A DNA stretch of 64,000 nt from Escherichia coli (GTDB lineage: Bacteria; Pseudomonadota; Gammaproteobacteria; Enterobacterales; Enterobacteriaceae). Location: assembly GCF_041248615.1 (NCBI RefSeq), contig NZ_CP158426.1; one strand, given 5' to 3'. A program made the translations under genes and the position numbers. Shown piece after piece: positions 729-42,522 of the stretch (positions are counted from its first letter, which is position 1; every line of letters begins with the position of its first letter). A model generated the notes under the pieces. It was not told the DNA's origin. It saw only the letters and a list, made by a program, of their open reading frames with translations, and made no database searches.

Positions 729-2666
729 TCAGTAACGACGTCCCCATTCCGTGGCGCTCATCAATGTCGGTTTATCCCCCATGAAATAGCGGTAGTAAGC
801 GTCATAAGCCAGCACGTTCTTCACATAACCGCGCGTCTCGGAGAACGGAATACTCTCGACAAATGCCACTGCGTCGATACGCCCGGCGCTGTTGCCAAGC
901 CAGGTTCGCACCCGCCCTGGTCCGGCGTTATAAGCTGCTGAGGAGAAAATACGGTTATTACCAAACTGCTGATAAACATATTGCAGGTAACTGGTGCCAA
1001 TGTTGATGTTCGTTTCCGGATCCAGCAATTGTCCTGGGCTGCTATAACCAGGAATAGAGAACATCTTCACCGTATGGGTCGCCGTGCCCGGCATAATCTG
1101 CATCAGGCCGCTGGCCCCTACCGGCGATTTCACTTTCGGATTCCAGGCACTCTCCTGACGGGCAATCGCCATCGCATAGCTTTGCGGGATCTCCTTCCCA
1201 CTGGTGTAACGTTTGAAAAGATCGTTGTAGGCCAGCGGGAATCGTTCTTCCAGATGATCCCACAGCTTCCCGGCGATCGTTGCCTGAACGCTAAGATCCC
1301 ACCATTGGTTATTGAAAGCATACCGAGCCAGTTGCGCCTGCTCTGTTTTTGACTTGCTCTTCACCAGATTGGCCCACTCGCTACGCGCGGTGTTATCGAG
1401 ATTCCAGTACATCAACTCGCGCACGCGCGCCATCTCCGGCCCCTGAGTCAGGGCGCTGTCAACATTCTGCGGCGCTTTATCAATCTTCAGCTCATACTCT
1501 TCTCCGATGCGTTGTGCTGCAACCATCGGGTAGAAACCACGCTGTTGCATGAGTTGATGCAAAATCTCTTTCGCTTCAGCTTCACGTCCGCGTTCCAGCA
1601 GTAAATCCGCCTGCCAGTAACGCCATTCATCTTTCTCTTTCGCCTCCATCGGCAAACGCGCCAGCCAGGTATTCAGGCCGCGACGATCGCCGGTGCCAAG
1701 CGCCATTCGCACACGGCGTTCAATAAGCGAAGTAGATTGCGAACGCATAATGGCGTCATCACGCCATTTCGCCTGTTCGTCGGTGACATCGTTGCCCATC
1801 AAACGCCAGGCGACGATATCGCGCAGCTCCTGAATCTGATCTTCATTAAGCTGCTGCGCCTGGGCAAGCGACGGAATCATCAGCCGTGCATTTTCAGCAT
1901 CCTGCCGCGCCACACTGGCAAACGCCACCGCCGCCATTTGACGGGTAAAATCGGTCGCTCCGGTTGTACGCGCGAAGGTCAGTACCGTATTAGGATTGTT
2001 CGCCAGTGAAATAATTGCCGAAGCGATAGTCTGGTAATCGGCAGGCATCTGCCCTGCCAGCACTGTTACCAGGCCAGTGTTACCCGCTTTCATCGCCAGA
2101 CGGATACGCTCTAAATACGCCAGCGGATCTTGTTTACCTGACGCACGCCAGACGCTAAATAACTTGTCACAGGCGTTAGGCTGGCTCTTGCCGGTTAGCC
2201 ACAGCTCTTTCGCCCCTTGCCAGGCTTCTTCACTCTGCCCGGTGTTCCATTTTGCATAGTAGTAATTACATTGCGCTTCGGTAGTTCCGGGCTTTTCCGG
2301 GCTAAAGGCTAACAAGCCACGCCAGTCTTCACGCCGCGCCAGTTCATTGACGAAACGAGATTGCAGCGTGCGAGCGGGAGGAAGCGTGGGGTTAGCGCGA
2401 ACAAAGTTAGTGACCGTCACCGCCGGTTGATTCATCAGATCATCGGTGATCTGGCGGTATTCCAGGTAGGGATAAAGCGGATAATCTTTCAGTCCAGGCA
2501 TCATTTGTTCGACCACATCCATTTGTCGATTATCCCAGGCCTGCTTGATTTGGGCGTAGCGGCTACGCTGCTCATCCAGTGAGTCGGCTCGCGCCACGCT
2601 GCTGACCGTCAGCAGACAGACACCGGCAGCCAACAGCCGCCAGGTAACGTGTTTGGCTTTTTCCAC
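729..2666 (-). CDS. slt: Soluble lytic murein transglycosylase Slt70 (GTG start inferred; six-frame ORF extends to 2696)
   Basis: 645 aa from VEKAKHVTWRLLAAGVCLL signal peptide to C-terminal SLT domain; matches Slt as recalled. Confidence 0.93.
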   Translation of the reverse strand: MEKAKHVTWRLLAAGVCLLTVSSVARADSLDEQRSRYAQIKQAWDNRQMDVVEQMMPGLKDYPLYPYLEYRQITDDLMNQPAVTVTNFVRANPTLPPARTLQSRFVNELARREDWRGLLAFSPEKPGTTEAQCNYYYAKWNTGQSEEAWQGAKELWLTGKSQPNACDKLFSVWRASGKQDPLAYLERIRLAMKAGNTGLVTVLAGQMPADYQTIASAIISLANNPNTVLTFARTTGATDFTRQMAAVAFASVARQDAENARLMIPSLAQAQQLNEDQIQELRDIVAWRLMGNDVTDEQAKWRDDAIMRSQSTSLIERRVRMALGTGDRRGLNTWLARLPMEAKEKDEWRYWQADLLLERGREAEAKEILHQLMQQRGFYPMVAAQRIGEEYELKIDKAPQNVDSALTQGPEMARVRELMYWNLDNTARSEWANLVKSKSKTEQAQLARYAFNNQWWDLSVQATIAGKLWDHLEERFPLAYNDLFKRYTSGKEIPQSYAMAIARQESAWNPKVKSPVGASGLMQIMPGTATHTVKMFSIPGYSSPGQLLDPETNINIGTSYLQYVYQQFGNNRIFSSAAYNAGPGRVRTWLGNSAGRIDAVAFVESIPFSETRGYVKNVLAYDAYYRYFMGDKPTLMSATEWGRRY

Positions 2667-35867: not shown

Positions 35868-36748
35868 ACACTCCTCGTCAGTATTCTGGCGGCCATTGCA
35901 CTTAATCCCGGAGACATGCGGTTGAATGCTGTGCCGGCGGCGTTAAGCTGCCCGGAAACGGTATCCAGAGCACCTGCAATATTTCTTTTGTCCACACCAC
36001 TCAGCGCAGACTGTGCCTGCTGTACATACGTGGCTGCTTCGCTGGCTGTTCTGGCCAGACTGATGGCATCGGGCATGGATTCAGAGAGTGCGTTAAACGC
36101 CGGAACACTTTTCCCCAGAGCCCCGGAGATATTACCCAGTCCGCTCATCAGCCCCGGCACACGGGTCAGTGCGACAACGGGGTTATCCTTCATTTTCTGT
36201 GTCACCCGAACGGCGCTGATAGTGGTCTGGAGTACAGACTGCGCCTGTTTCGCATAGTTGACGCCGTTGCGGATGAACTGCGCCACCCCTGAAGGTGAAG
36301 GAATGGCACCGGAGACCGCCCCGACACCCGGGAGCTTCGTGCGTATTGCCGGTGGTTGCAGAGGATTTTTCGGATCACCGGTGTATTCCCGGAGAGACAC
36401 GGTGGCACTGACAGCCAGCACGTTACCGGTGCTGTCTGTCTGCTCGCTGGTTGCGGTCACATCGGTAATCACGAACCAGCCACGATAGTCACCGTTGCCG
36501 AAGACCAGCGCCAGTGCCTGATGGGCTTTCATGGCTGTTCGCAGTCTCGCCAGCTCCACATCGGGTACACAATAATGCTGATGGAAGACCAGACTTATCT
36601 GGATTTCGTCCAGCCTGTCGCCGACGAACTGCAGGCCAGGCTTACCCCCGATGCGGGCATGCTCCGCATAATCGACGCCGGACGTGGCCTCGAAGCCGTC
36701 CCAGTAGGTAATCAGCTCAAACTCAATATCACCCAGTACGGCAAACAT
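35864..36748 (-). CDS. Tail protein (Mu N / DNA-circularisation family-like)
   Basis: 294 aa immediately downstream of tape measure. Confidence 0.55.
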   Translation of the reverse strand: MFAVLGDIEFELITYWDGFEATSGVDYAEHARIGGKPGLQFVGDRLDEIQISLVFHQHYCVPDVELARLRTAMKAHQALALVFGNGDYRGWFVITDVTATSEQTDSTGNVLAVSATVSLREYTGDPKNPLQPPAIRTKLPGVGAVSGAIPSPSGVAQFIRNGVNYAKQAQSVLQTTISAVRVTQKMKDNPVVALTRVPGLMSGLGNISGALGKSVPAFNALSESMPDAISLARTASEAATYVQQAQSALSGVDKRNIAGALDTVSGQLNAAGTAFNRMSPGLSAMAARILTRSV

Positions 36749-39699
36749 CAGCGGTACTCCTTACGTTGTTTCTGAGCCAGCAGACGCTCCAGCATTTTTT
36801 CCAGCTCATGCAGACTCATATTCAGGGCACCAGTCAGTCCTGCAGGCGCTGTGGTTTCCCTGCCATTGAGGAAAAACTGAGGATTAAAGCTGACCTGGAT
36901 ACCACCAGACGTTCCACCGCCGGTTGCAGCTGCACCACGGCCTGAATATCCGGCAGTCAGGATTTCAGGCGAGGGGATACGGGGAACATCCGGTGTCATC
37001 TCATTTGCCAGACGTTGCCCTGGTAAAATCGATGCCCGGGTGGGGAGCGGAATAGCGGGCATGGAAGACAAACTATTGATTACGGCTCCGATCGCATTTT
37101 TAGCAGACGACATAAACACATTGATATCGGGCAACGGCATACTGAAGCGAACACCTGAAGTGTTATCCCGTATTTCTGGCCCCTGAATGCTCACGGGCAT
37201 TCTGGGGAGCAGTTCACTGGCCATTCGCTGCCCGGCCAGAGCTGCAAGCGGAGTGGTCCGCTGCAGGCCAATGGCGGCCCCCTGCGCGATATTGTCACCA
37301 AAGCCCATAAACACGCGGCTCGGCGAATGAATGCCCAGCTTTTCGCTGAACCAGCCACTGATGCTGTCGCCCATTCCGGTTACACTGGATTTGAGCGACT
37401 CCCATTTGTTTTTGATACCGTTAATCAGACCATCGACAAGATGGCCACCGAAGTCGGTAAACTTTGCCGGCAGATCAACACCAAGATATTTCAGCGCAGC
37501 TGCAAAGGCTTTATAGAGCAGACCTGCCGGCGACCAGTTAATCAGCAGCTTACCAGTTCCCGCGATACCGCCGTTAAAGGCTTCCTGAATGTCAGCCCAG
37601 CACTGTTTAAACCAGCTACTGATGCTGTCACCCATTCCGGTTACACTGGATTTGAGCGACCCCCATTTGTTTTTGATACCGTTAATCAGACCGTCGATAA
37701 GATGACCACCGAAGTCGGTGAACTTTGCCGGCAGAGTAACGCCGAAATATTTCAGCGCAGCCGCAAAGGCTTTATAGAGCAGACCTGCCGGCGACCAGTT
37801 AATCAGCAGCTTACCAGTTCCCGCGATACCGCCGTTAAAGGCTTCCTGAATGTCAGCCCAGCGCTGTTTAAACCAGCCACTGACTGCCCCCCAGTTGCGG
37901 TAGATAAGGTAAGCTGCTGCCGCGACAGCGGTGATAACGAGACCGATGGGATTCATCATCAGCGCACGTCCAATCCAGAGAACAGCACGTCCGGCGAGCA
38001 TAATTCCGCGAACCAGCCCCCCGGAGAGCACGCCACTCAGTGTTCTGGCTCCTCTGGCGACGGCGCTAAATCCGGTCACCAGCCAGCGGAGCTTACCGCC
38101 TTGCCCCAGTGCGAGCGACAGACGAAGCCAGTTGGCCCGAAGTAAAACAGCATTTTTCCAGACACTTACAAAGGGGGAAATAAGGAGATTCAGCCCCAGT
38201 TTGAGACCAACAGTCGCTATCTTAATCGCAAGGAGCGCACTGATGAGCTTAAAAGCCCCACTGACAAATTGCGGGTGAGTCGCTACCCAGTGTTTTGCCC
38301 CCTGAATGAGTGGAAGCAGTTCCTGAGTCAAAGAAATAAAAGATGGAGCTAATTGATCGCCCAGCGTAATTGCCAGATCGCGACTGCTGACCATAAGTGT
38401 TTTAGTGGCTTCAAGGGGAGATTTCAGCCGCTGATCATAAGCACTGGCAAGCAAATCGTTATCCGCAGCCCTGAGAGCACCGGCACGGATCTCTCGATAT
38501 CTGTCCATGTTGGCCAGCATCGGGCGGATAAATGCCATGACCTGCATATCCGCGAACATATCGCCCAGACCAAAGTTTTTCGCCAGAGCCTGAAGTGCCT
38601 CATCTCTTGCCGTATCATTCTTTATTTTCATGGCTGATTTGAAGCCGGCCAGCGCTTCGGGGCTTTTGGCATTGAGGTAACGTTCTATAACACTCAACAT
38701 CCCTTCAATCGGAGAGATCCCCGCAGCTTTATAACTCGCAATAGATCCCTGCAAATCAATACCCAGATCAGCAAACTGTTTCTGAGTATCGCGGGCAAAA
38801 ATTTTGGTAAGAAAGTTTTTAAAATTATTAGCTGCTTCGTCGGTGGAACCTGCACCGATTTTTGCTATCTGGAGACTGGCCCCGATTTCAGCAACAGCCT
38901 CTTTTCCACTGGCAATACCCGCCATCATTGGGGCCAGGGACTGCATCCACTTGACCTGATCCGGGATTTCAAATGACCCCTGGTCACCGGCATAAGCCAT
39001 AATATTCTGAACGGCACCAAAATCTCTGGCCGCACCTTTCAGGGAGTTTTGCCAGACTGCGGCCACTTTTGCCCAGTCCTGAGCAGACGTGCGTGTTGCC
39101 GTTGCCGCGCGGGCAATATCCGGCATCAGAAAACCGATATCTGACACATTATCAATATTGTCGCTGATGAGTGAACCCACCGCCTCCTGCAGCTCATCCT
39201 GATACTGATTGTATTTAAGCGCCCAGCCTTTTATCTGTCCGGCAAGTGCATCCCGCGTTTTATTGTCATATTTTGCGGTGATCGACATATCAATCATTTT
39301 GTCCTGAAAAGACATGGACTGCTGAACGGCAGGGGAAACCGTATGATAAACAGTCTGTGCCATGCCATACGCTTCAATCCCCTGACCATACAGCGCCATG
39401 CGGTTAGCTTTCAGCGCATCACTGGTAGCGGATGCCGCTGACAGACGGCGCTGCTGGCGCTCAATTTGCTCCATGGTGCGGCTTACCCGCAGCAGCTCGC
39501 TGTTGAGATGCTGCATCCGGGAAGAACCCAGTTGACCATAACGTTCTGTTGCACGGGTTAAAGCGTTCTGACGTTCCTGCAGGCGGCGTGAGGTATCGCT
39601 CAGGGAATCAAGCGCACGGCGGGTACCGCTCATTGCAGAACGGAATGTGCTGCCAATCATCCCGCCGATAACAACGCCGACTGAAAACTGTCCCGACAT
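36748..39699 (-). CDS. Tail tape measure protein with internal 87-aa tandem duplication
   Basis: 983 aa, alpha-helical Gly/Ala-rich; 261 bp direct repeat (blocks at 37534 and 37795). Confidence 0.85.
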   Translation of the reverse strand: MSGQFSVGVVIGGMIGSTFRSAMSGTRRALDSLSDTSRRLQERQNALTRATERYGQLGSSRMQHLNSELLRVSRTMEQIERQQRRLSAASATSDALKANRMALYGQGIEAYGMAQTVYHTVSPAVQQSMSFQDKMIDMSITAKYDNKTRDALAGQIKGWALKYNQYQDELQEAVGSLISDNIDNVSDIGFLMPDIARAATATRTSAQDWAKVAAVWQNSLKGAARDFGAVQNIMAYAGDQGSFEIPDQVKWMQSLAPMMAGIASGKEAVAEIGASLQIAKIGAGSTDEAANNFKNFLTKIFARDTQKQFADLGIDLQGSIASYKAAGISPIEGMLSVIERYLNAKSPEALAGFKSAMKIKNDTARDEALQALAKNFGLGDMFADMQVMAFIRPMLANMDRYREIRAGALRAADNDLLASAYDQRLKSPLEATKTLMVSSRDLAITLGDQLAPSFISLTQELLPLIQGAKHWVATHPQFVSGAFKLISALLAIKIATVGLKLGLNLLISPFVSVWKNAVLLRANWLRLSLALGQGGKLRWLVTGFSAVARGARTLSGVLSGGLVRGIMLAGRAVLWIGRALMMNPIGLVITAVAAAAYLIYRNWGAVSGWFKQRWADIQEAFNGGIAGTGKLLINWSPAGLLYKAFAAALKYFGVTLPAKFTDFGGHLIDGLINGIKNKWGSLKSSVTGMGDSISSWFKQCWADIQEAFNGGIAGTGKLLINWSPAGLLYKAFAAALKYLGVDLPAKFTDFGGHLVDGLINGIKNKWESLKSSVTGMGDSISGWFSEKLGIHSPSRVFMGFGDNIAQGAAIGLQRTTPLAALAGQRMASELLPRMPVSIQGPEIRDNTSGVRFSMPLPDINVFMSSAKNAIGAVINSLSSMPAIPLPTRASILPGQRLANEMTPDVPRIPSPEILTAGYSGRGAAATGGGTSGGIQVSFNPQFFLNGRETTAPAGLTGALNMSLHELEKMLERLLAQKQRKEYR

Positions 39700-39774
39700 A
39701 GTGGTTAACCTCCGGGGAAGGTGAAAAGACGTGAGGGAATAACGCAGAACAGCCGCTACTGGCGGCTGTCTGTA

Positions 39775-40032
39775 CTATGATTTGTCGCCGTACTCGCTTT
39801 TTATTTGCTCTTCAGCCTGCTCCAGCCACATCTCCAGATCGTCAGTATCGAGGGCATCAATCTCCCCCGGCTGAAACCGGAACCATCTCGCCAGCAGCCC
39901 CTGCGCCTGCGTCAGCGCCCTGGTTGCTCTCACCCATCCCCGTGATGAGCTGAAATCGTTTCTGTAACTGCAGGTAATCAGCCAGATCCATATTGTCGAG
40001 ATCTTCCGGGAGAAGACCAGTACTGCGGGCAA
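39775..40032 (-). CDS. Candidate frameshift extension of tail assembly chaperone (no ATG; TTG in ORF track)
   Basis: Overlaps 39857-40032 in the +1 frame relative to the chaperone and ends 82 nt past its stop. Confidence 0.35.
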   Translation of the reverse strand: MPAVLVFSRKISTIWIWLITCSYRNDFSSSRGWVRATRALTQAQGLLARWFRFQPGEIDALDTDDLEMWLEQAEEQIKSEYGDKS

Positions 40033-40192
40033 TCAGCGGTTCGTCCCAGTCTGCCGGGTTTTTGCTGATTTTGCGCACCTGCTTCAGGTCTTTTACCGTC
40101 AGGCGTTTCAGTTCAACCAGCTCAATTCTGGTGCCTGCAGCAGTGGTGAAGGGATAAGACAATTTAAAAGTATCGGATGGGGTCTGTGACAT
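39857..40192 (-). CDS. Tail assembly chaperone (upstream ORF of frameshift pair)
   Basis: 111 aa between tube and tape measure; acidic C-terminus; overlapping out-of-frame ORF follows. Confidence 0.6.
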   Translation of the reverse strand: MSQTPSDTFKLSYPFTTAAGTRIELVELKRLTVKDLKQVRKISKNPADWDEPLIARSTGLLPEDLDNMDLADYLQLQKRFQLITGMGESNQGADAGAGAAGEMVPVSAGGD

Positions 40193-40289
40193 GATTGTGC
40201 TCCTGTGTAAGTTCAGGGCAGTATGTCGGGAGAAGCGCGTGACGGATATTAAAGGAGATTAAGAAGAAGGGGCCGGAGCCCCTGTGATG

Positions 40290-40571
40290 TCAGCAAGTGC
40301 GAAACCCCTTGCAGTTACGCAGGAAAGCGATGAGAAGCGTCTTTCCCTCAGATTTGCCGATGCCGGAGAACCAGTGGTCGGGAGGCTCCCATGCTTCAAT
40401 CAAATCCGCCAGTTTGCGGGCCTTTGAACGTGTGCAGTCAATCGGGTCATTGGTTTTACGGGTATTAAAAAGGGTTTCCACCCCCGGAATATCAAGGAGG
40501 GTAAACCACGTACCATTTGACATGCCCAGTGCCGCACATCGTCCTCCTTTATCCGTCAGTTCAACACTCAC
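40290..40571 (-). CDS. Small tail-module protein of unknown function
   Basis: 93 aa ORF directly after tail tube gene. Confidence 0.5.
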   Translation of the reverse strand: MSVELTDKGGRCAALGMSNGTWFTLLDIPGVETLFNTRKTNDPIDCTRSKARKLADLIEAWEPPDHWFSGIGKSEGKTLLIAFLRNCKGFRTC

Positions 40572-40573
40572 CG

Positions 40574-41095
40574 TCAGCCCCCGATATTGATACGGTAGTC
40601 AGTCAGCTGATCAACGCCACCGACGCGGAAGATGTTGGCCAGATAGTCCAGTTGCAGCAGCTCTTCACCATCCAGTACCTGTCTGATATACGTGCAGGTG
40701 AAGCTACTGGAGAACTCGGCGTTCTCGTGCTGTTTGAACGTCCCCAGCGGGTTCTTCTTGAACATAATCGTCAGGAAGGTGACCAGCGGGATTTCGTCAA
40801 TCAGCCCCTGCGAGCTGTAGCGCTGGACGCTGGAACGACACTGCAGTGCCAGCGACCTGTACGGGTTCGCGGCAGACAGCATCGCATCGCGGTAAAAGCT
40901 GTTCCATTTGATTTCGCCTTCCAGTTTGTCAAAACCAGCCGGGAGTTCCACCTTACCCACCATCCCCAGCGCCTTGTGTTCCTGCATAATCATGGAGACA
41001 TCGGGGAGTTTAACTTCCTCAGCCCGTCCCAGCAGGTTAGTACCATCCAGATAGATGTTGGCATTCGTGATGCGGTTTATCTCAATCTTTGACAT
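40574..41095 (-). CDS. Tail tube protein (Mu M-like)
   Basis: 173 aa immediately after sheath gene, start/stop overlap. Confidence 0.8.
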   Translation of the reverse strand: MSKIEINRITNANIYLDGTNLLGRAEEVKLPDVSMIMQEHKALGMVGKVELPAGFDKLEGEIKWNSFYRDAMLSAANPYRSLALQCRSSVQRYSSQGLIDEIPLVTFLTIMFKKNPLGTFKQHENAEFSSSFTCTYIRQVLDGEELLQLDYLANIFRVGGVDQLTDYRINIGG

Positions 41096-42522
41096 CAGTT
41101 GCCCCCTTTCAGGGTTAACAGGTATTCCGAGGTGATCTCAGTCTCATACGTCAGTCGCTCCAGCGGTGGCGGCGGCGTGTATTTGTAGCTCAGCAACAGG
41201 TGACCGGCTGCCAGTTCCGTCTCCGGATTACGGGCCGGATCAAACCAGCAGTTGAAACCCAGCAGTGCACCATCACTAATCATCTTTCGACCGTAGGCGT
41301 TGACCGACTCCGTCAGTGCATCAATCAGCGCCTGAGTAATCGGCATGTCGATGTACTGCTGACTGAAGTAACGAATGGACTCGTTGATCACATCACCGGT
41401 GCGGCGAACATTCTCAAAGTTACGCATATGGGTGACCGTTGGCCATGCTGCCGTCCGGTTACCACACAGACGAAGGCCGCTGCCATAACTGCTGAATACC
41501 GTGGTGATCCCCTGTTCGTTAAGCAGGTTCACCTCACTCTGTGGGTCATCAATCATCGCGGACAGCTGGCGCTCCACACCGGTGATCCCCAGAATCTCCT
41601 GATTGGAGGACGACCACCAGTAGCCCTTGTCCAGATCGACTCTGGCACGCAGACCTGCTGCACGCTGGCTGAGCGGCTCCAGACGCTCCGTGTTTGTCAC
41701 CGGGTCATATACCTTCACATGCGGATAGCACAGACGGACGCGGTCGGAGCTGGTATTGAAGTTAATGGTGCCTTCCGGGCCACGACCTGCCAGAGCCTGT
41801 GCAAAGGTGGTACCGACAGGCGCATCAATGTAGGTTACCGCTCCCAGCTTCTCTGTCATGGCGATAAGCTCAACTGCTACACTCTTCTGGGTGCAGAACA
41901 CCGGCGCAATCAGAATTTTGGCAAAATAGCCGTACAGGTTGAAGCTGTCGTTAAGCAGCTTCATGCCGGTTCGGTTTCCGGCGCTGTTCACCCCGCCGAT
42001 GATGTCCGCCGCAGTCACCTTCGACGGGTCCGCGTACTCATAGCTCACCTTCACGCTGCCACTGGCCTCAATAGCCTTGCCCAGGTTCGTGAGCACACCC
42101 GTCTGCGCATCAACACGGTAGTCCGTGTTCGCCGTGTGGGTGGTGCTGCCTTCACTGTTTTTCACCACCACATTAGCGACAACCGGATGCGCCAGTCTGG
42201 CCTGCCCTGTCGATTTGTCAAAGGTAACCACTTCACCCTGGATCGCCGTTTTATGTTTCGCCGGGTCGAGGACGTTAATGACCAGAACGGTGCCTGCACC
42301 ATGGTCATAAATCGCATCCAGCGCCTGCGGAATGGTAAAGCCGGTGAACTGGCTGCCAAATGCCGCTGCGTCTTTCTCAGACAGGCACTGTACCAGCGTA
42401 TTGACGTCCCCCATCGGGGCGGTACCAATCAGGCCAATAACGGCAGATTTCACCGTTTTAACCGGGCGGGCTCCGTTTTCCACCTCAATGGTTTCGACGC
42501 CATGCAGATAGTTAGCTGCCAT
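41095..42522 (-). CDS. Contractile tail sheath protein (Mu L-like)
   Basis: 475 aa, sheath family character. Confidence 0.9.
   Translation of the reverse strand: MAANYLHGVETIEVENGARPVKTVKSAVIGLIGTAPMGDVNTLVQCLSEKDAAAFGSQFTGFTIPQALDAIYDHGAGTVLVINVLDPAKHKTAIQGEVVTFDKSTGQARLAHPVVANVVVKNSEGSTTHTANTDYRVDAQTGVLTNLGKAIEASGSVKVSYEYADPSKVTAADIIGGVNSAGNRTGMKLLNDSFNLYGYFAKILIAPVFCTQKSVAVELIAMTEKLGAVTYIDAPVGTTFAQALAGRGPEGTINFNTSSDRVRLCYPHVKVYDPVTNTERLEPLSQRAAGLRARVDLDKGYWWSSSNQEILGITGVERQLSAMIDDPQSEVNLLNEQGITTVFSSYGSGLRLCGNRTAAWPTVTHMRNFENVRRTGDVINESIRYFSQQYIDMPITQALIDALTESVNAYGRKMISDGALLGFNCWFDPARNPETELAAGHLLLSYKYTPPPPLERLTYETEITSEYLLTLKGGN

Follow-up and report, generated by a model that had tools for sequence, protein, structure and literature searches.

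A putative +1 frameshift at CGA_UUU_C in the gene for the tail assembly chaperone of a BcepMu-like prophage of Escherichia coli

Known chaperone frameshifts and the prophage locus

Frameshifting in the genes of phage tail assembly chaperones is well known, and occasional +1 cases have been described. In phage lambda, a −1 shift at G_GGA_AAG yields a recoded long form, gpGT, beside the abundant short form gpG, and both are presumed to chaperone the tape measure protein (PMC5009743). In Mu, the gp41 chaperone is extended by a tandem −2 slip on GG_GGG_CGA (PMC3458567, PMC5009743). In P2, where the record annotates E and E+E' as essential tail proteins, the long form arises through a −1 shift at the heptamer T_TTT_TTG. 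Here, a 64,000-nucleotide stretch of Escherichia coli DNA (contig NZ_CP158426.1 of assembly GCF_041248615.1, the whole of which is called the window below) is described, in which a chaperone gene of a BcepMu-like prophage is very probably read in part into an overlapping +1 frame, with CGA_UUU_C as the likely place of the shift.

The short chaperone is encoded by an open reading frame (ORF) of 111 codons that starts with ATG and defines the 0 frame (39857..40192, minus strand, as for all features of the window given here). In the list of ORFs it is overlapped by a second frame on the same strand, offset by +1 (equivalently −2), which is open from 40032 or earlier to a stop at 39775..39777 and was listed from a TTG at 40032 as 85 amino acids; the two frames share 176 nt. 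Both lie at the conserved place between the tail tube and tape measure genes, in that order of transcription, with one extra ORF of 93 amino acids intervening. The preliminary description of the locus, made from the letters of the sequence, had pointed to these two overlapping ORFs as a tail assembly chaperone pair with an unusual +1 offset and with no ATG for the downstream frame, and each of these points has held. The 111-aa protein matches Pfam PF10109 (Phage_TAC_7) over residues 8-81 with E=5.5e-21 and 74.8 bits (cut-off 25). This is the family of P2 gpE and Mu gp41, and its Pfam title names 'E, or 41 or 14'. The chaperone region is 99.4% identical to that of Escherichia phage PhiKM (genus Bcepmuvirus, deposited as a phage) and about 83% identical to that of Klebsiella phage KP12, a sewage isolate, and the prophage was found in 640 of 5426 complete E. 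coli genomes. Sequence comparison identifies the locus as a tail assembly chaperone pair of the E/E+E' type, carried by a BcepMu-like (Bcepmuvirus) prophage.

The part of the +1 frame that would be found only in the long form spans 39775..39951 and encodes 58 amino acids followed by the stop (SSSRGWVRATRALTQAQGLLARWFRFQPGEIDALDTDDLEMWLEQAEEQIKSEYGDKS). It matches phrog_8286 (E=3e-33), and the frame is open in all relatives. Within it, a gpE'-like domain (AQGLLARWFRFQPGEIDALDTDDLEMWLEQAEEQ, 39805..39906) begins at 'AQGLLARWF' and was delimited by hhalign to P2 E' and by Pfam Phage_P2_GpE (PF06528). The family profile is matched to P2 E' by hhalign with a probability of 93.8% (E=1.7e-7), and PF06528 is matched by the peptides of 17 of 17 representative relatives (best 9.1e-8). 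For the peptide of the window itself the score is 15.8-18.3 bits, under the 23-bit cut-off. The consensus of the +1 peptide in relatives is ..L-W.....LLA[RK]WF[RH]FQP[SG]EID.L..[DE][FL]..W...A..QIK.E.., and these profile matches make the product of the +1 frame a homologue of P2 gpE'.

Joined to the upstream ORF at the position argued for below, the predicted fusion, join(40192..39953, 39951..39775), has 138 residues and a mass of 15,853.7 Da (15.85 kDa), and it aligns colinearly with P2 E+E' from end to end (138 versus 142 residues). The two systems share the PF10109 chaperone domain with a PF06528 gpE' extension and a gene position between tube (FII in P2) and tape measure (T in P2). The P2 slip site also falls only 3-4 residues from the column of the conserved Phe discussed below, so that both junctions lie at the end of the chaperone domain. 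They differ in the direction and signal of the shift, which here would be +1 at a UUU_C tetranucleotide with CGA upstream, and in the 0 frame, which runs for 31 codons past the shift compared with 7 in P2 and thus gives a long dual-coding overlap. The likeness to lambda G/GT lies in the arrangement, with two overlapping ORFs between the major tail or tube gene and the tape measure gene and two forms that share an N-terminus; sequence homology to G/T is lacking, the direction is +1 and there is no heptamer. A relative with a solved structure in the PDB was not found by sequence.

Conservation of the +1 frame

Relatives were gathered from IMG/VR, GTDB genomes and GenBank phages, giving about 100 sequences (98 unique) with 27-100% identity in the chaperone. 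Over this whole range of identity, the +1 geometry is kept from E. coli and further Enterobacterales to Burkholderia, Pseudomonas, Chromobacterium, Ralstonia and others. The gpE'-like peptide lies in the +1 frame in all relatives except one, a prophage of Mannheimia haemolytica (L088), in which it lies in the −1 frame and a canonical lambda-type G_GGA_AAG stands just before the 0-frame stop (~1440..1465 of that sequence). Both shift directions therefore occur inside one protein family, and this member has the signal of lambda G/GT. The preliminary description had named a lack of conservation of the downstream frame as an outcome that would speak against it, and the frame has turned out to be the best-conserved part of the locus.

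How the +1 frame could be reached is narrowed by its lack of a start. It has no ATG near its beginning, the only ATG being the internal Met of 'LEMWL', and its candidate GTG and TTG starts vary among relatives, none being kept in the enteric clade. Because no start codon is conserved, the long form would be reachable only by recoding.

The arrangement also goes beyond what chance would give. When codon-position entropy was summed over 37 unique close relatives, codons 1-80 gave 29.9, 18.5 and 66.7 at 0-frame positions 1, 2 and 3, with variation concentrated at position 3, whereas codons 95-111 gave 9.0, 1.6 and 0.7. Position 1 of the 0 frame is position 3 of the +1 frame, so the 111-aa ORF changes over its last 17 codons in the manner of +1 coding sequence. 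The position-3 pattern extends over codons 1-87 and the position-1 pattern runs from codon 95 onward. Stop codons behave alike: among 24 representative relatives, the +1 frame holds 127 stops in 2477 codons upstream of a conserved Phe, whereas the 604 codons from that Phe to the E' motif are free of them. Altogether, a programmed shift into the +1 frame that makes an E+E'-like fusion is, from these comparisons, highly probable.

The overlap of the two frames (39857..39951) is delimited by the switch in codon-position entropy and by a natural 0-frame stop at codon 91. Its pattern of variation suggests a dual-coding segment in which the 0 frame encodes a dispensable, variable tail of the short form, while the +1 frame encodes the linker of the long form and the start of the E' domain. 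The natural stop belongs to a common E. coli allele of this prophage (L026/L027/L107/L108), in which CAG at chaperone codon 91 has become TAG without altering the amino acid of the +1 frame. The product of this allele (P0014, 90 amino acids) is present on 914 contigs, an indication that the short form can do without its last 21 residues.

Position and possible mechanism of the shift

Stop codons in the two frames bound the place of the shift. On the upstream side, a +1-frame stop lies 3 codons before the TTT of the conserved Phe in L077, L078, L079 and L005. On the downstream side, 0-frame stops lie at F+8 (L080), F+9 (L084), F+10 (L087 and Pseudomonas phage Bise) and F+11 (L085 and the E. coli Q91-stop allele), counting in codons from the Phe. 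A site common to the family must therefore fall within about 11 codons. In this interval, the only universal feature is TTT followed by C: the Phe codon is TTT in 98 of 98 unique sequences and TTC in none, and the residue after it changes (Q, L, R, H) yet its codon always begins with C. The Arg before the Phe is CGA wherever it is Arg (75/75), compared with mostly CGC or CGT elsewhere in the gene. The seven nucleotides CGA_UUU_C (39952..39958) comprise R79, F80 and the first base of Q81, and they are identical in PhiKM.

This conservation is not what codon usage would give and points to selection for the slippery codon as such. In high-GC relatives, TTT makes up only 4-30% of Phe codons in flanking genes (70-96% are TTC), and multiplying this usage over a dozen lineages gives a chance of about 1e-9 for an unbroken TTT, an approximate figure only, since some dependence among the lineages remains. 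Invariant two-fold-degenerate D and E residues in the same alignment carry the minor codon in 13-36% of cases. Entropy is zero at all six cassette positions, and the adjacent codons vary at position 3. Just downstream, at F+4..F+6, conservation is stronger for the +1 residues L-[G/A]-W than for those of the 0 frame, and NTG forms codon F+6 in 53 of 53 enteric sequences, each of the four bases occurring at its first position, which argues that the +1 frame is already being read at F+4..F+6. On this comparative evidence, the shift probably occurs at CGA_UUU_C, about 80 bases upstream of the site proposed in the preliminary description, of which the gene pair and the +1 direction thus stand but the slip site does not.

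It is proposed that most ribosomes would stay in the 0 frame and produce the 111-aa chaperone, while a minority, expected from lambda G/GT to be a few per cent, would shift by +1 at the cassette (39958..39952). The peptidyl-tRNA-Phe (transfer RNA, tRNA; anticodon GAA) in the P site would slip from UUU (39955..39953) to the overlapping UUC (39954..39952), replacing a G:U pair with G:C, and decoding would resume at AGC (39951) to give the 138-aa fusion. Since tRNA-Phe on UUU cannot re-pair at −2, where it would meet GAU, the event would be +1 with no extra residue. In the fusion, residues 1-80 would form the Phage_TAC_7 domain, followed by a linker of about 15 residues under little constraint and then by the gpE'-like domain. 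If lambda G/GT and P2 E/E+E' are a guide, the tape measure would be bound by the short and the long form alike, with the extension bringing in tube subunits at a low, fixed ratio.

UUU_Ynn has been described as a +1 shift-prone tetranucleotide in bacteria that does not require an adjacent stop, UUU_Y being the likely site of the Yersinia YopN-TyeA fusion, and the shift that gives influenza A PA-X lies within UCC_UUU_CGU (PMC5009743). The present cassette resembles these sites in its P-site UUU followed by a pyrimidine, and it would likewise need no adjacent stop and be influenced by the 5' (E-site) codon; the BcepMu clade has TCC_TTT_CGC and L175 has TCT_TTT_CGT. It differs from them in gene and host, in an E-site codon that is mostly CGA and in an A-site codon that is not rare. 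With prfB (RF2), where the signal is CUU_UGA_C, it would share +1 slippage in the P site onto better or equal pairing and an efficiency modulated by the strength of E-site pairing, weaker pairing having been found to favor +1 shifting in the RF2 system (PMC5009743). Unlike prfB, it lacks an in-frame A-site stop, a Shine-Dalgarno stimulator placed 3 nt upstream and an autoregulatory logic.

As the shift takes place, the rare and conserved CGA would occupy the E site, paired through an inosine:A wobble, and this weak E-site pairing probably promotes the shift. CGA is decoded by tRNA-Arg(ICG) through I:A wobble and is hence a plausible weak E-site codon. A stop codon, a Shine-Dalgarno-like element and an RNA structure do not appear to be involved. 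A broader proposal can be made tentatively, and is considered possible but doubtful as a whole: CGA_UUU_C may act as a compact, self-sufficient +1 cassette, with the inosine-wobble CGA in the E site as its stimulator and with no stop, Shine-Dalgarno element or RNA structure, kept across the BcepMu-like phages of Entero-, Beta- and Gammaproteobacteria. The PF10109 + PF06528 family would then have met one stoichiometry problem with three different shifts (P2, −1; Mu, −2; the present locus, +1), with the 0-frame tail as a dispensable by-product.

Several observations weigh against placing the shift at CGA_UUU_C. The A-site codon is a common one (CAG, CAA, CTG or CGC), which offers no obvious pause, and CGA itself is not universal, other clades having UCC, UCU, GCN, ACA, AAA or CAC in its place. 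A conserved downstream RNA structure was not found with RNAalifold in 9 diverse relatives, for which the consensus energy was −8.76 kcal/mol, with a single compensatory pair and an unfavorable covariation term of +1.38. A 93-nt segment of the window folds with z = −1.79, and 12 of 200 shuffles fold equally well; a stimulatory structure downstream of the shift was rejected on these results. A Shine-Dalgarno-like element upstream of TTT is not conserved in the alignment of relatives, where nothing beyond AAA CGA is kept. Codons 81-87 are constrained mainly in the 0 frame and the +1 residues of codons 81-92 are weakly conserved, so the selection data alone place the switch only between codons ~80 and ~93. 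Relatives with a short 0 frame could shift at the stop itself (CAG_TTT_TGA in L085, TCC_TGA in Bise), and some other constraint at the nucleotide level could lie behind the conservation of TTT and CGA.

Alternative explanations

The same breadth of the selection data leaves some room for a programmed shift into the +1 frame elsewhere in codons 81-92, perhaps in a clade-specific manner. Candidate positions are GGG_A at codon 85, the 0-frame stop or its neighbor in the short-frame relatives, which end 8-11 codons after the Phe and include in L085 the classic +1 context TTT_TGA, or GGC_GCA (codons 96-97), on which tRNA-Ala could re-pair at −2, since GGC_GCN recurs in the window, BcepMu, Salmonella and Bise. 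This is unlikely, because none of these motifs is conserved across the family. GGG_A varies to GGG_C, GGG_T, GGC and AGC, and GGC_GCA lies downstream both of the 0-frame stops of L080, L084, L085, L087, Bise and the Q91-stop allele and of the +1-conserved residues 'P-x-x-L-W' and 'L-[GA]-W', for which reason re-pairing on GGC_GCN was rejected as a family-wide site.

Translation of the gpE'-like ORF by itself, from an internal non-ATG start and with no frameshift, is implied by the annotation of BcepMu gp42. Gene callers often call the frame separately (phrog_8286, BcepMu gp42), sequences of the BcepMu clade retain an ATG in the +1 frame, and in the window a GGGGA string precedes a GTG, which encodes the Val of 'GWV'. 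That GTG, though, becomes GCA, GCG, CTG or ATA in the enteric clade, where no start is conserved, and no more than 3 nt separate it from GGGGA. In the P2 record, the homologous E' appears solely as a −1 frameshift fusion, E+E', and an independent start would leave unexplained both the invariant CGA_TTT_C and the lack of +1 stops back to the Phe in every lineage. It is accordingly regarded as quite improbable.

Still less credit can be given to the slip region suggested in the preliminary description, GTT TCA GCC GGG GGA. The string is present (39877..39863), but it is not a conserved shift site; in the +1 frame, 39863..39877 reads F-Q-P-G-E within the gpE'-like domain. A shift at GCC_GGG_GGA (39871..39863) could be +1, if tRNA-Gly slid from one GGG to the GGG overlapping it, or −2 as in Mu, on the run of five Gs (39864..39868), and the fusion would read ...MVPVSAG(G)EIDALD.... 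Such a run is slippery in principle and resembles the GG_GGG_CGA of Mu (PMC3458567), it lies just ahead of the 0-frame stop, where chaperone shifts are usually found, and databases hold 'proteins' with exactly this junction (P0003-5, P0007-9). Against this, at least 16 of about 38 unique close relatives, KP12 among them, end the 0 frame at GAG GTG GTT TAG, 21 nt upstream of the run, more distant relatives stop the 0 frame 8-11 codons past the conserved Phe, and many relatives carry CCG AGT GAG instead of the G run. Purifying selection on the +1 frame already covers 15 codons upstream, and the site lies inside the gpE'-like domain, where a shift would delete 'LLARWFRFQ'.

The matching database proteins are sequencing artefacts. 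The 'fusions' of 138-194 amino acids (P0001-P0009; Logan contigs L189-L196) come with several homopolymer deletions per 1.6 kb, and the deletions of the Logan contigs (G5 to G4, T5 to T4, C4 to C3) mimic the product of a shift at the G run. The 138-aa 'fusions' were rejected as natural products on account of their scattered junctions and the homopolymer errors in the contigs. The candidate products differ in predicted mass (15,853.7 Da for UUU_C, 15,195.8 Da for +1 and 15,252.9 Da for −2 at the G run) and in predicted tryptic peptides, which are FSSSR, GWVR, ATR, ALTQAQGLLAR and WFR for UUU_C and a single long FQLITGMGESNQ...PVSAG(G)EIDALDTDDLEMWLEQAEEQIK for the G run.

The preliminary description had also proposed a comparison with Mu-like phages. 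Mu and the present locus do have in common the Pfam chaperone family, the context of a Mu-like transposable myophage, an alternative frame at +1/−2 and a CGA codon in their signals. The likeness is only superficial. The Phe codon at the comparable 'DDFQ' of Mu is TTC, and the +1 frame of Mu has a stop just before its G run, so that Mu must shift there, whereas at the present locus the G run is not conserved, is excluded as the site, and the signal GG_GGG_CGA is not kept.

The preliminary description had seen no canonical slippery heptamer. The only in-frame XXXYYYZ in the 111-aa ORF, A_AAC_CCG at 40061 (codons 44-45), leads to a −1 frame that is neither long open nor conserved, and it is probably there by chance. 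A heptamer for tandem slippage is likewise absent from the interval allowed for the shift, and the window and every relative but one have their extension in the +1 frame. Transcriptional slippage, in which RNA polymerase would stutter, and an unexpressed, non-functional relic are both scarcely believable: nothing specific speaks for either beyond the existence of the G5 run, which is ruled out as a conserved site, the allowed interval has no long run of A or T (T3 being too short), and a relic is excluded by the strong purifying selection on the +1 frame in ~100 sequences.

Annotation, significance and neighboring genes

RefSeq (PGAP) labels the 111-aa ORF 'phage tail assembly protein' and the PhiKM record calls it 'tail protein E'. 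These two, like the records of KP12, phiE255 and vB_E427, give only the short form or separate small ORFs, so that about 60 codons of essential-looking coding sequence are missing from the annotations of a widespread phage group. The BcepMu record (NC_005882; L003, 4498..5003) labels gp42/gp43 as a lambda G/GT-like frameshift pair. BcepMu gp42 is the +1-frame gpE'-like ORF that overlaps gp41, and in phiE255 the region equivalent to gp43 is annotated as a minus-strand membrane protein (L188, 2204..2446); the frameshift-pair annotation of gp42/gp43 is probably mis-assigned. The paper on phage KS10 states that no such frameshift was found in KS10. In a partial literature search, which is not proof of novelty, no paper on a frameshift in BcepMu-like chaperones was found.

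The locus is an unannotated member of the well-known class of chaperone frameshifts, with an unusually clean comparative signature, and the advance is incremental in that such shifts, some of them +1, are familiar. Few programmed +1 frameshifts are known in bacteria. If the proposed site is correct, a deeply conserved 7-nt signal free of stops would offer a clean model for P-site slippage on UUU_Y and for the effect of the E-site codon, with the relatives whose 0-frame stops lie at varied distances as natural controls. That homologous chaperones shift by −1, −2 and, as proposed here, +1 suggests that selection acts on the products' ratio rather than on the mechanism.

Upstream of the chaperone pair, the contractile-tail module includes the sheath gene (41095..42522) and the tail tube gene (40574..41095; Pfam Phage_tube, 2.9e-53). 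The intervening 93-aa ORF (40290..40571) appears in the ORF list and belongs to phrog_1239, of unknown function, with a weak, sub-threshold match to Pfam DUF7739. It is shared with PhiKM, KP12 and E. coli relatives and is missing from BcepMu, a Salmonella Infantis prophage and phage Bise, in all three of which the tube gene is directly followed by the chaperone gene; it may be a moron-like insertion. After it, in the middle of the tail operon, stands a terminator-like GC hairpin with a T-rich tail (AGGGGCTCCGGCCCCT TCTTCTT, 40268..40283).

A second hairpin, GC-rich and of 8 bp (ACAGCCGC-CAGTA-GCGGCTGT, 39749..39769), lies 6 nt past the E' stop codon and before the start of the tape measure gene. 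Several relatives have hairpins with other sequences at the same spot, and T runs come after some of these (L053, L131, L084). The hairpin of the window may work as a partial terminator or attenuator and so set the ratio of chaperone to tape measure.

The tape measure gene (36748..39699, 983 amino acids) was assigned by Pfam PhageMin_Tail (2e-20) and by the tape-measure annotation in relatives. It has 2952 nt in the window versus 2466 nt in KP12 and E. coli O68:H12, and the longer form would predict a longer tail. An internal tandem duplication (37349..37883) has a period of 261 nt and 2.0 copies that are 94% identical, and the PhiKM record has a sequencing gap at the site of this duplication.

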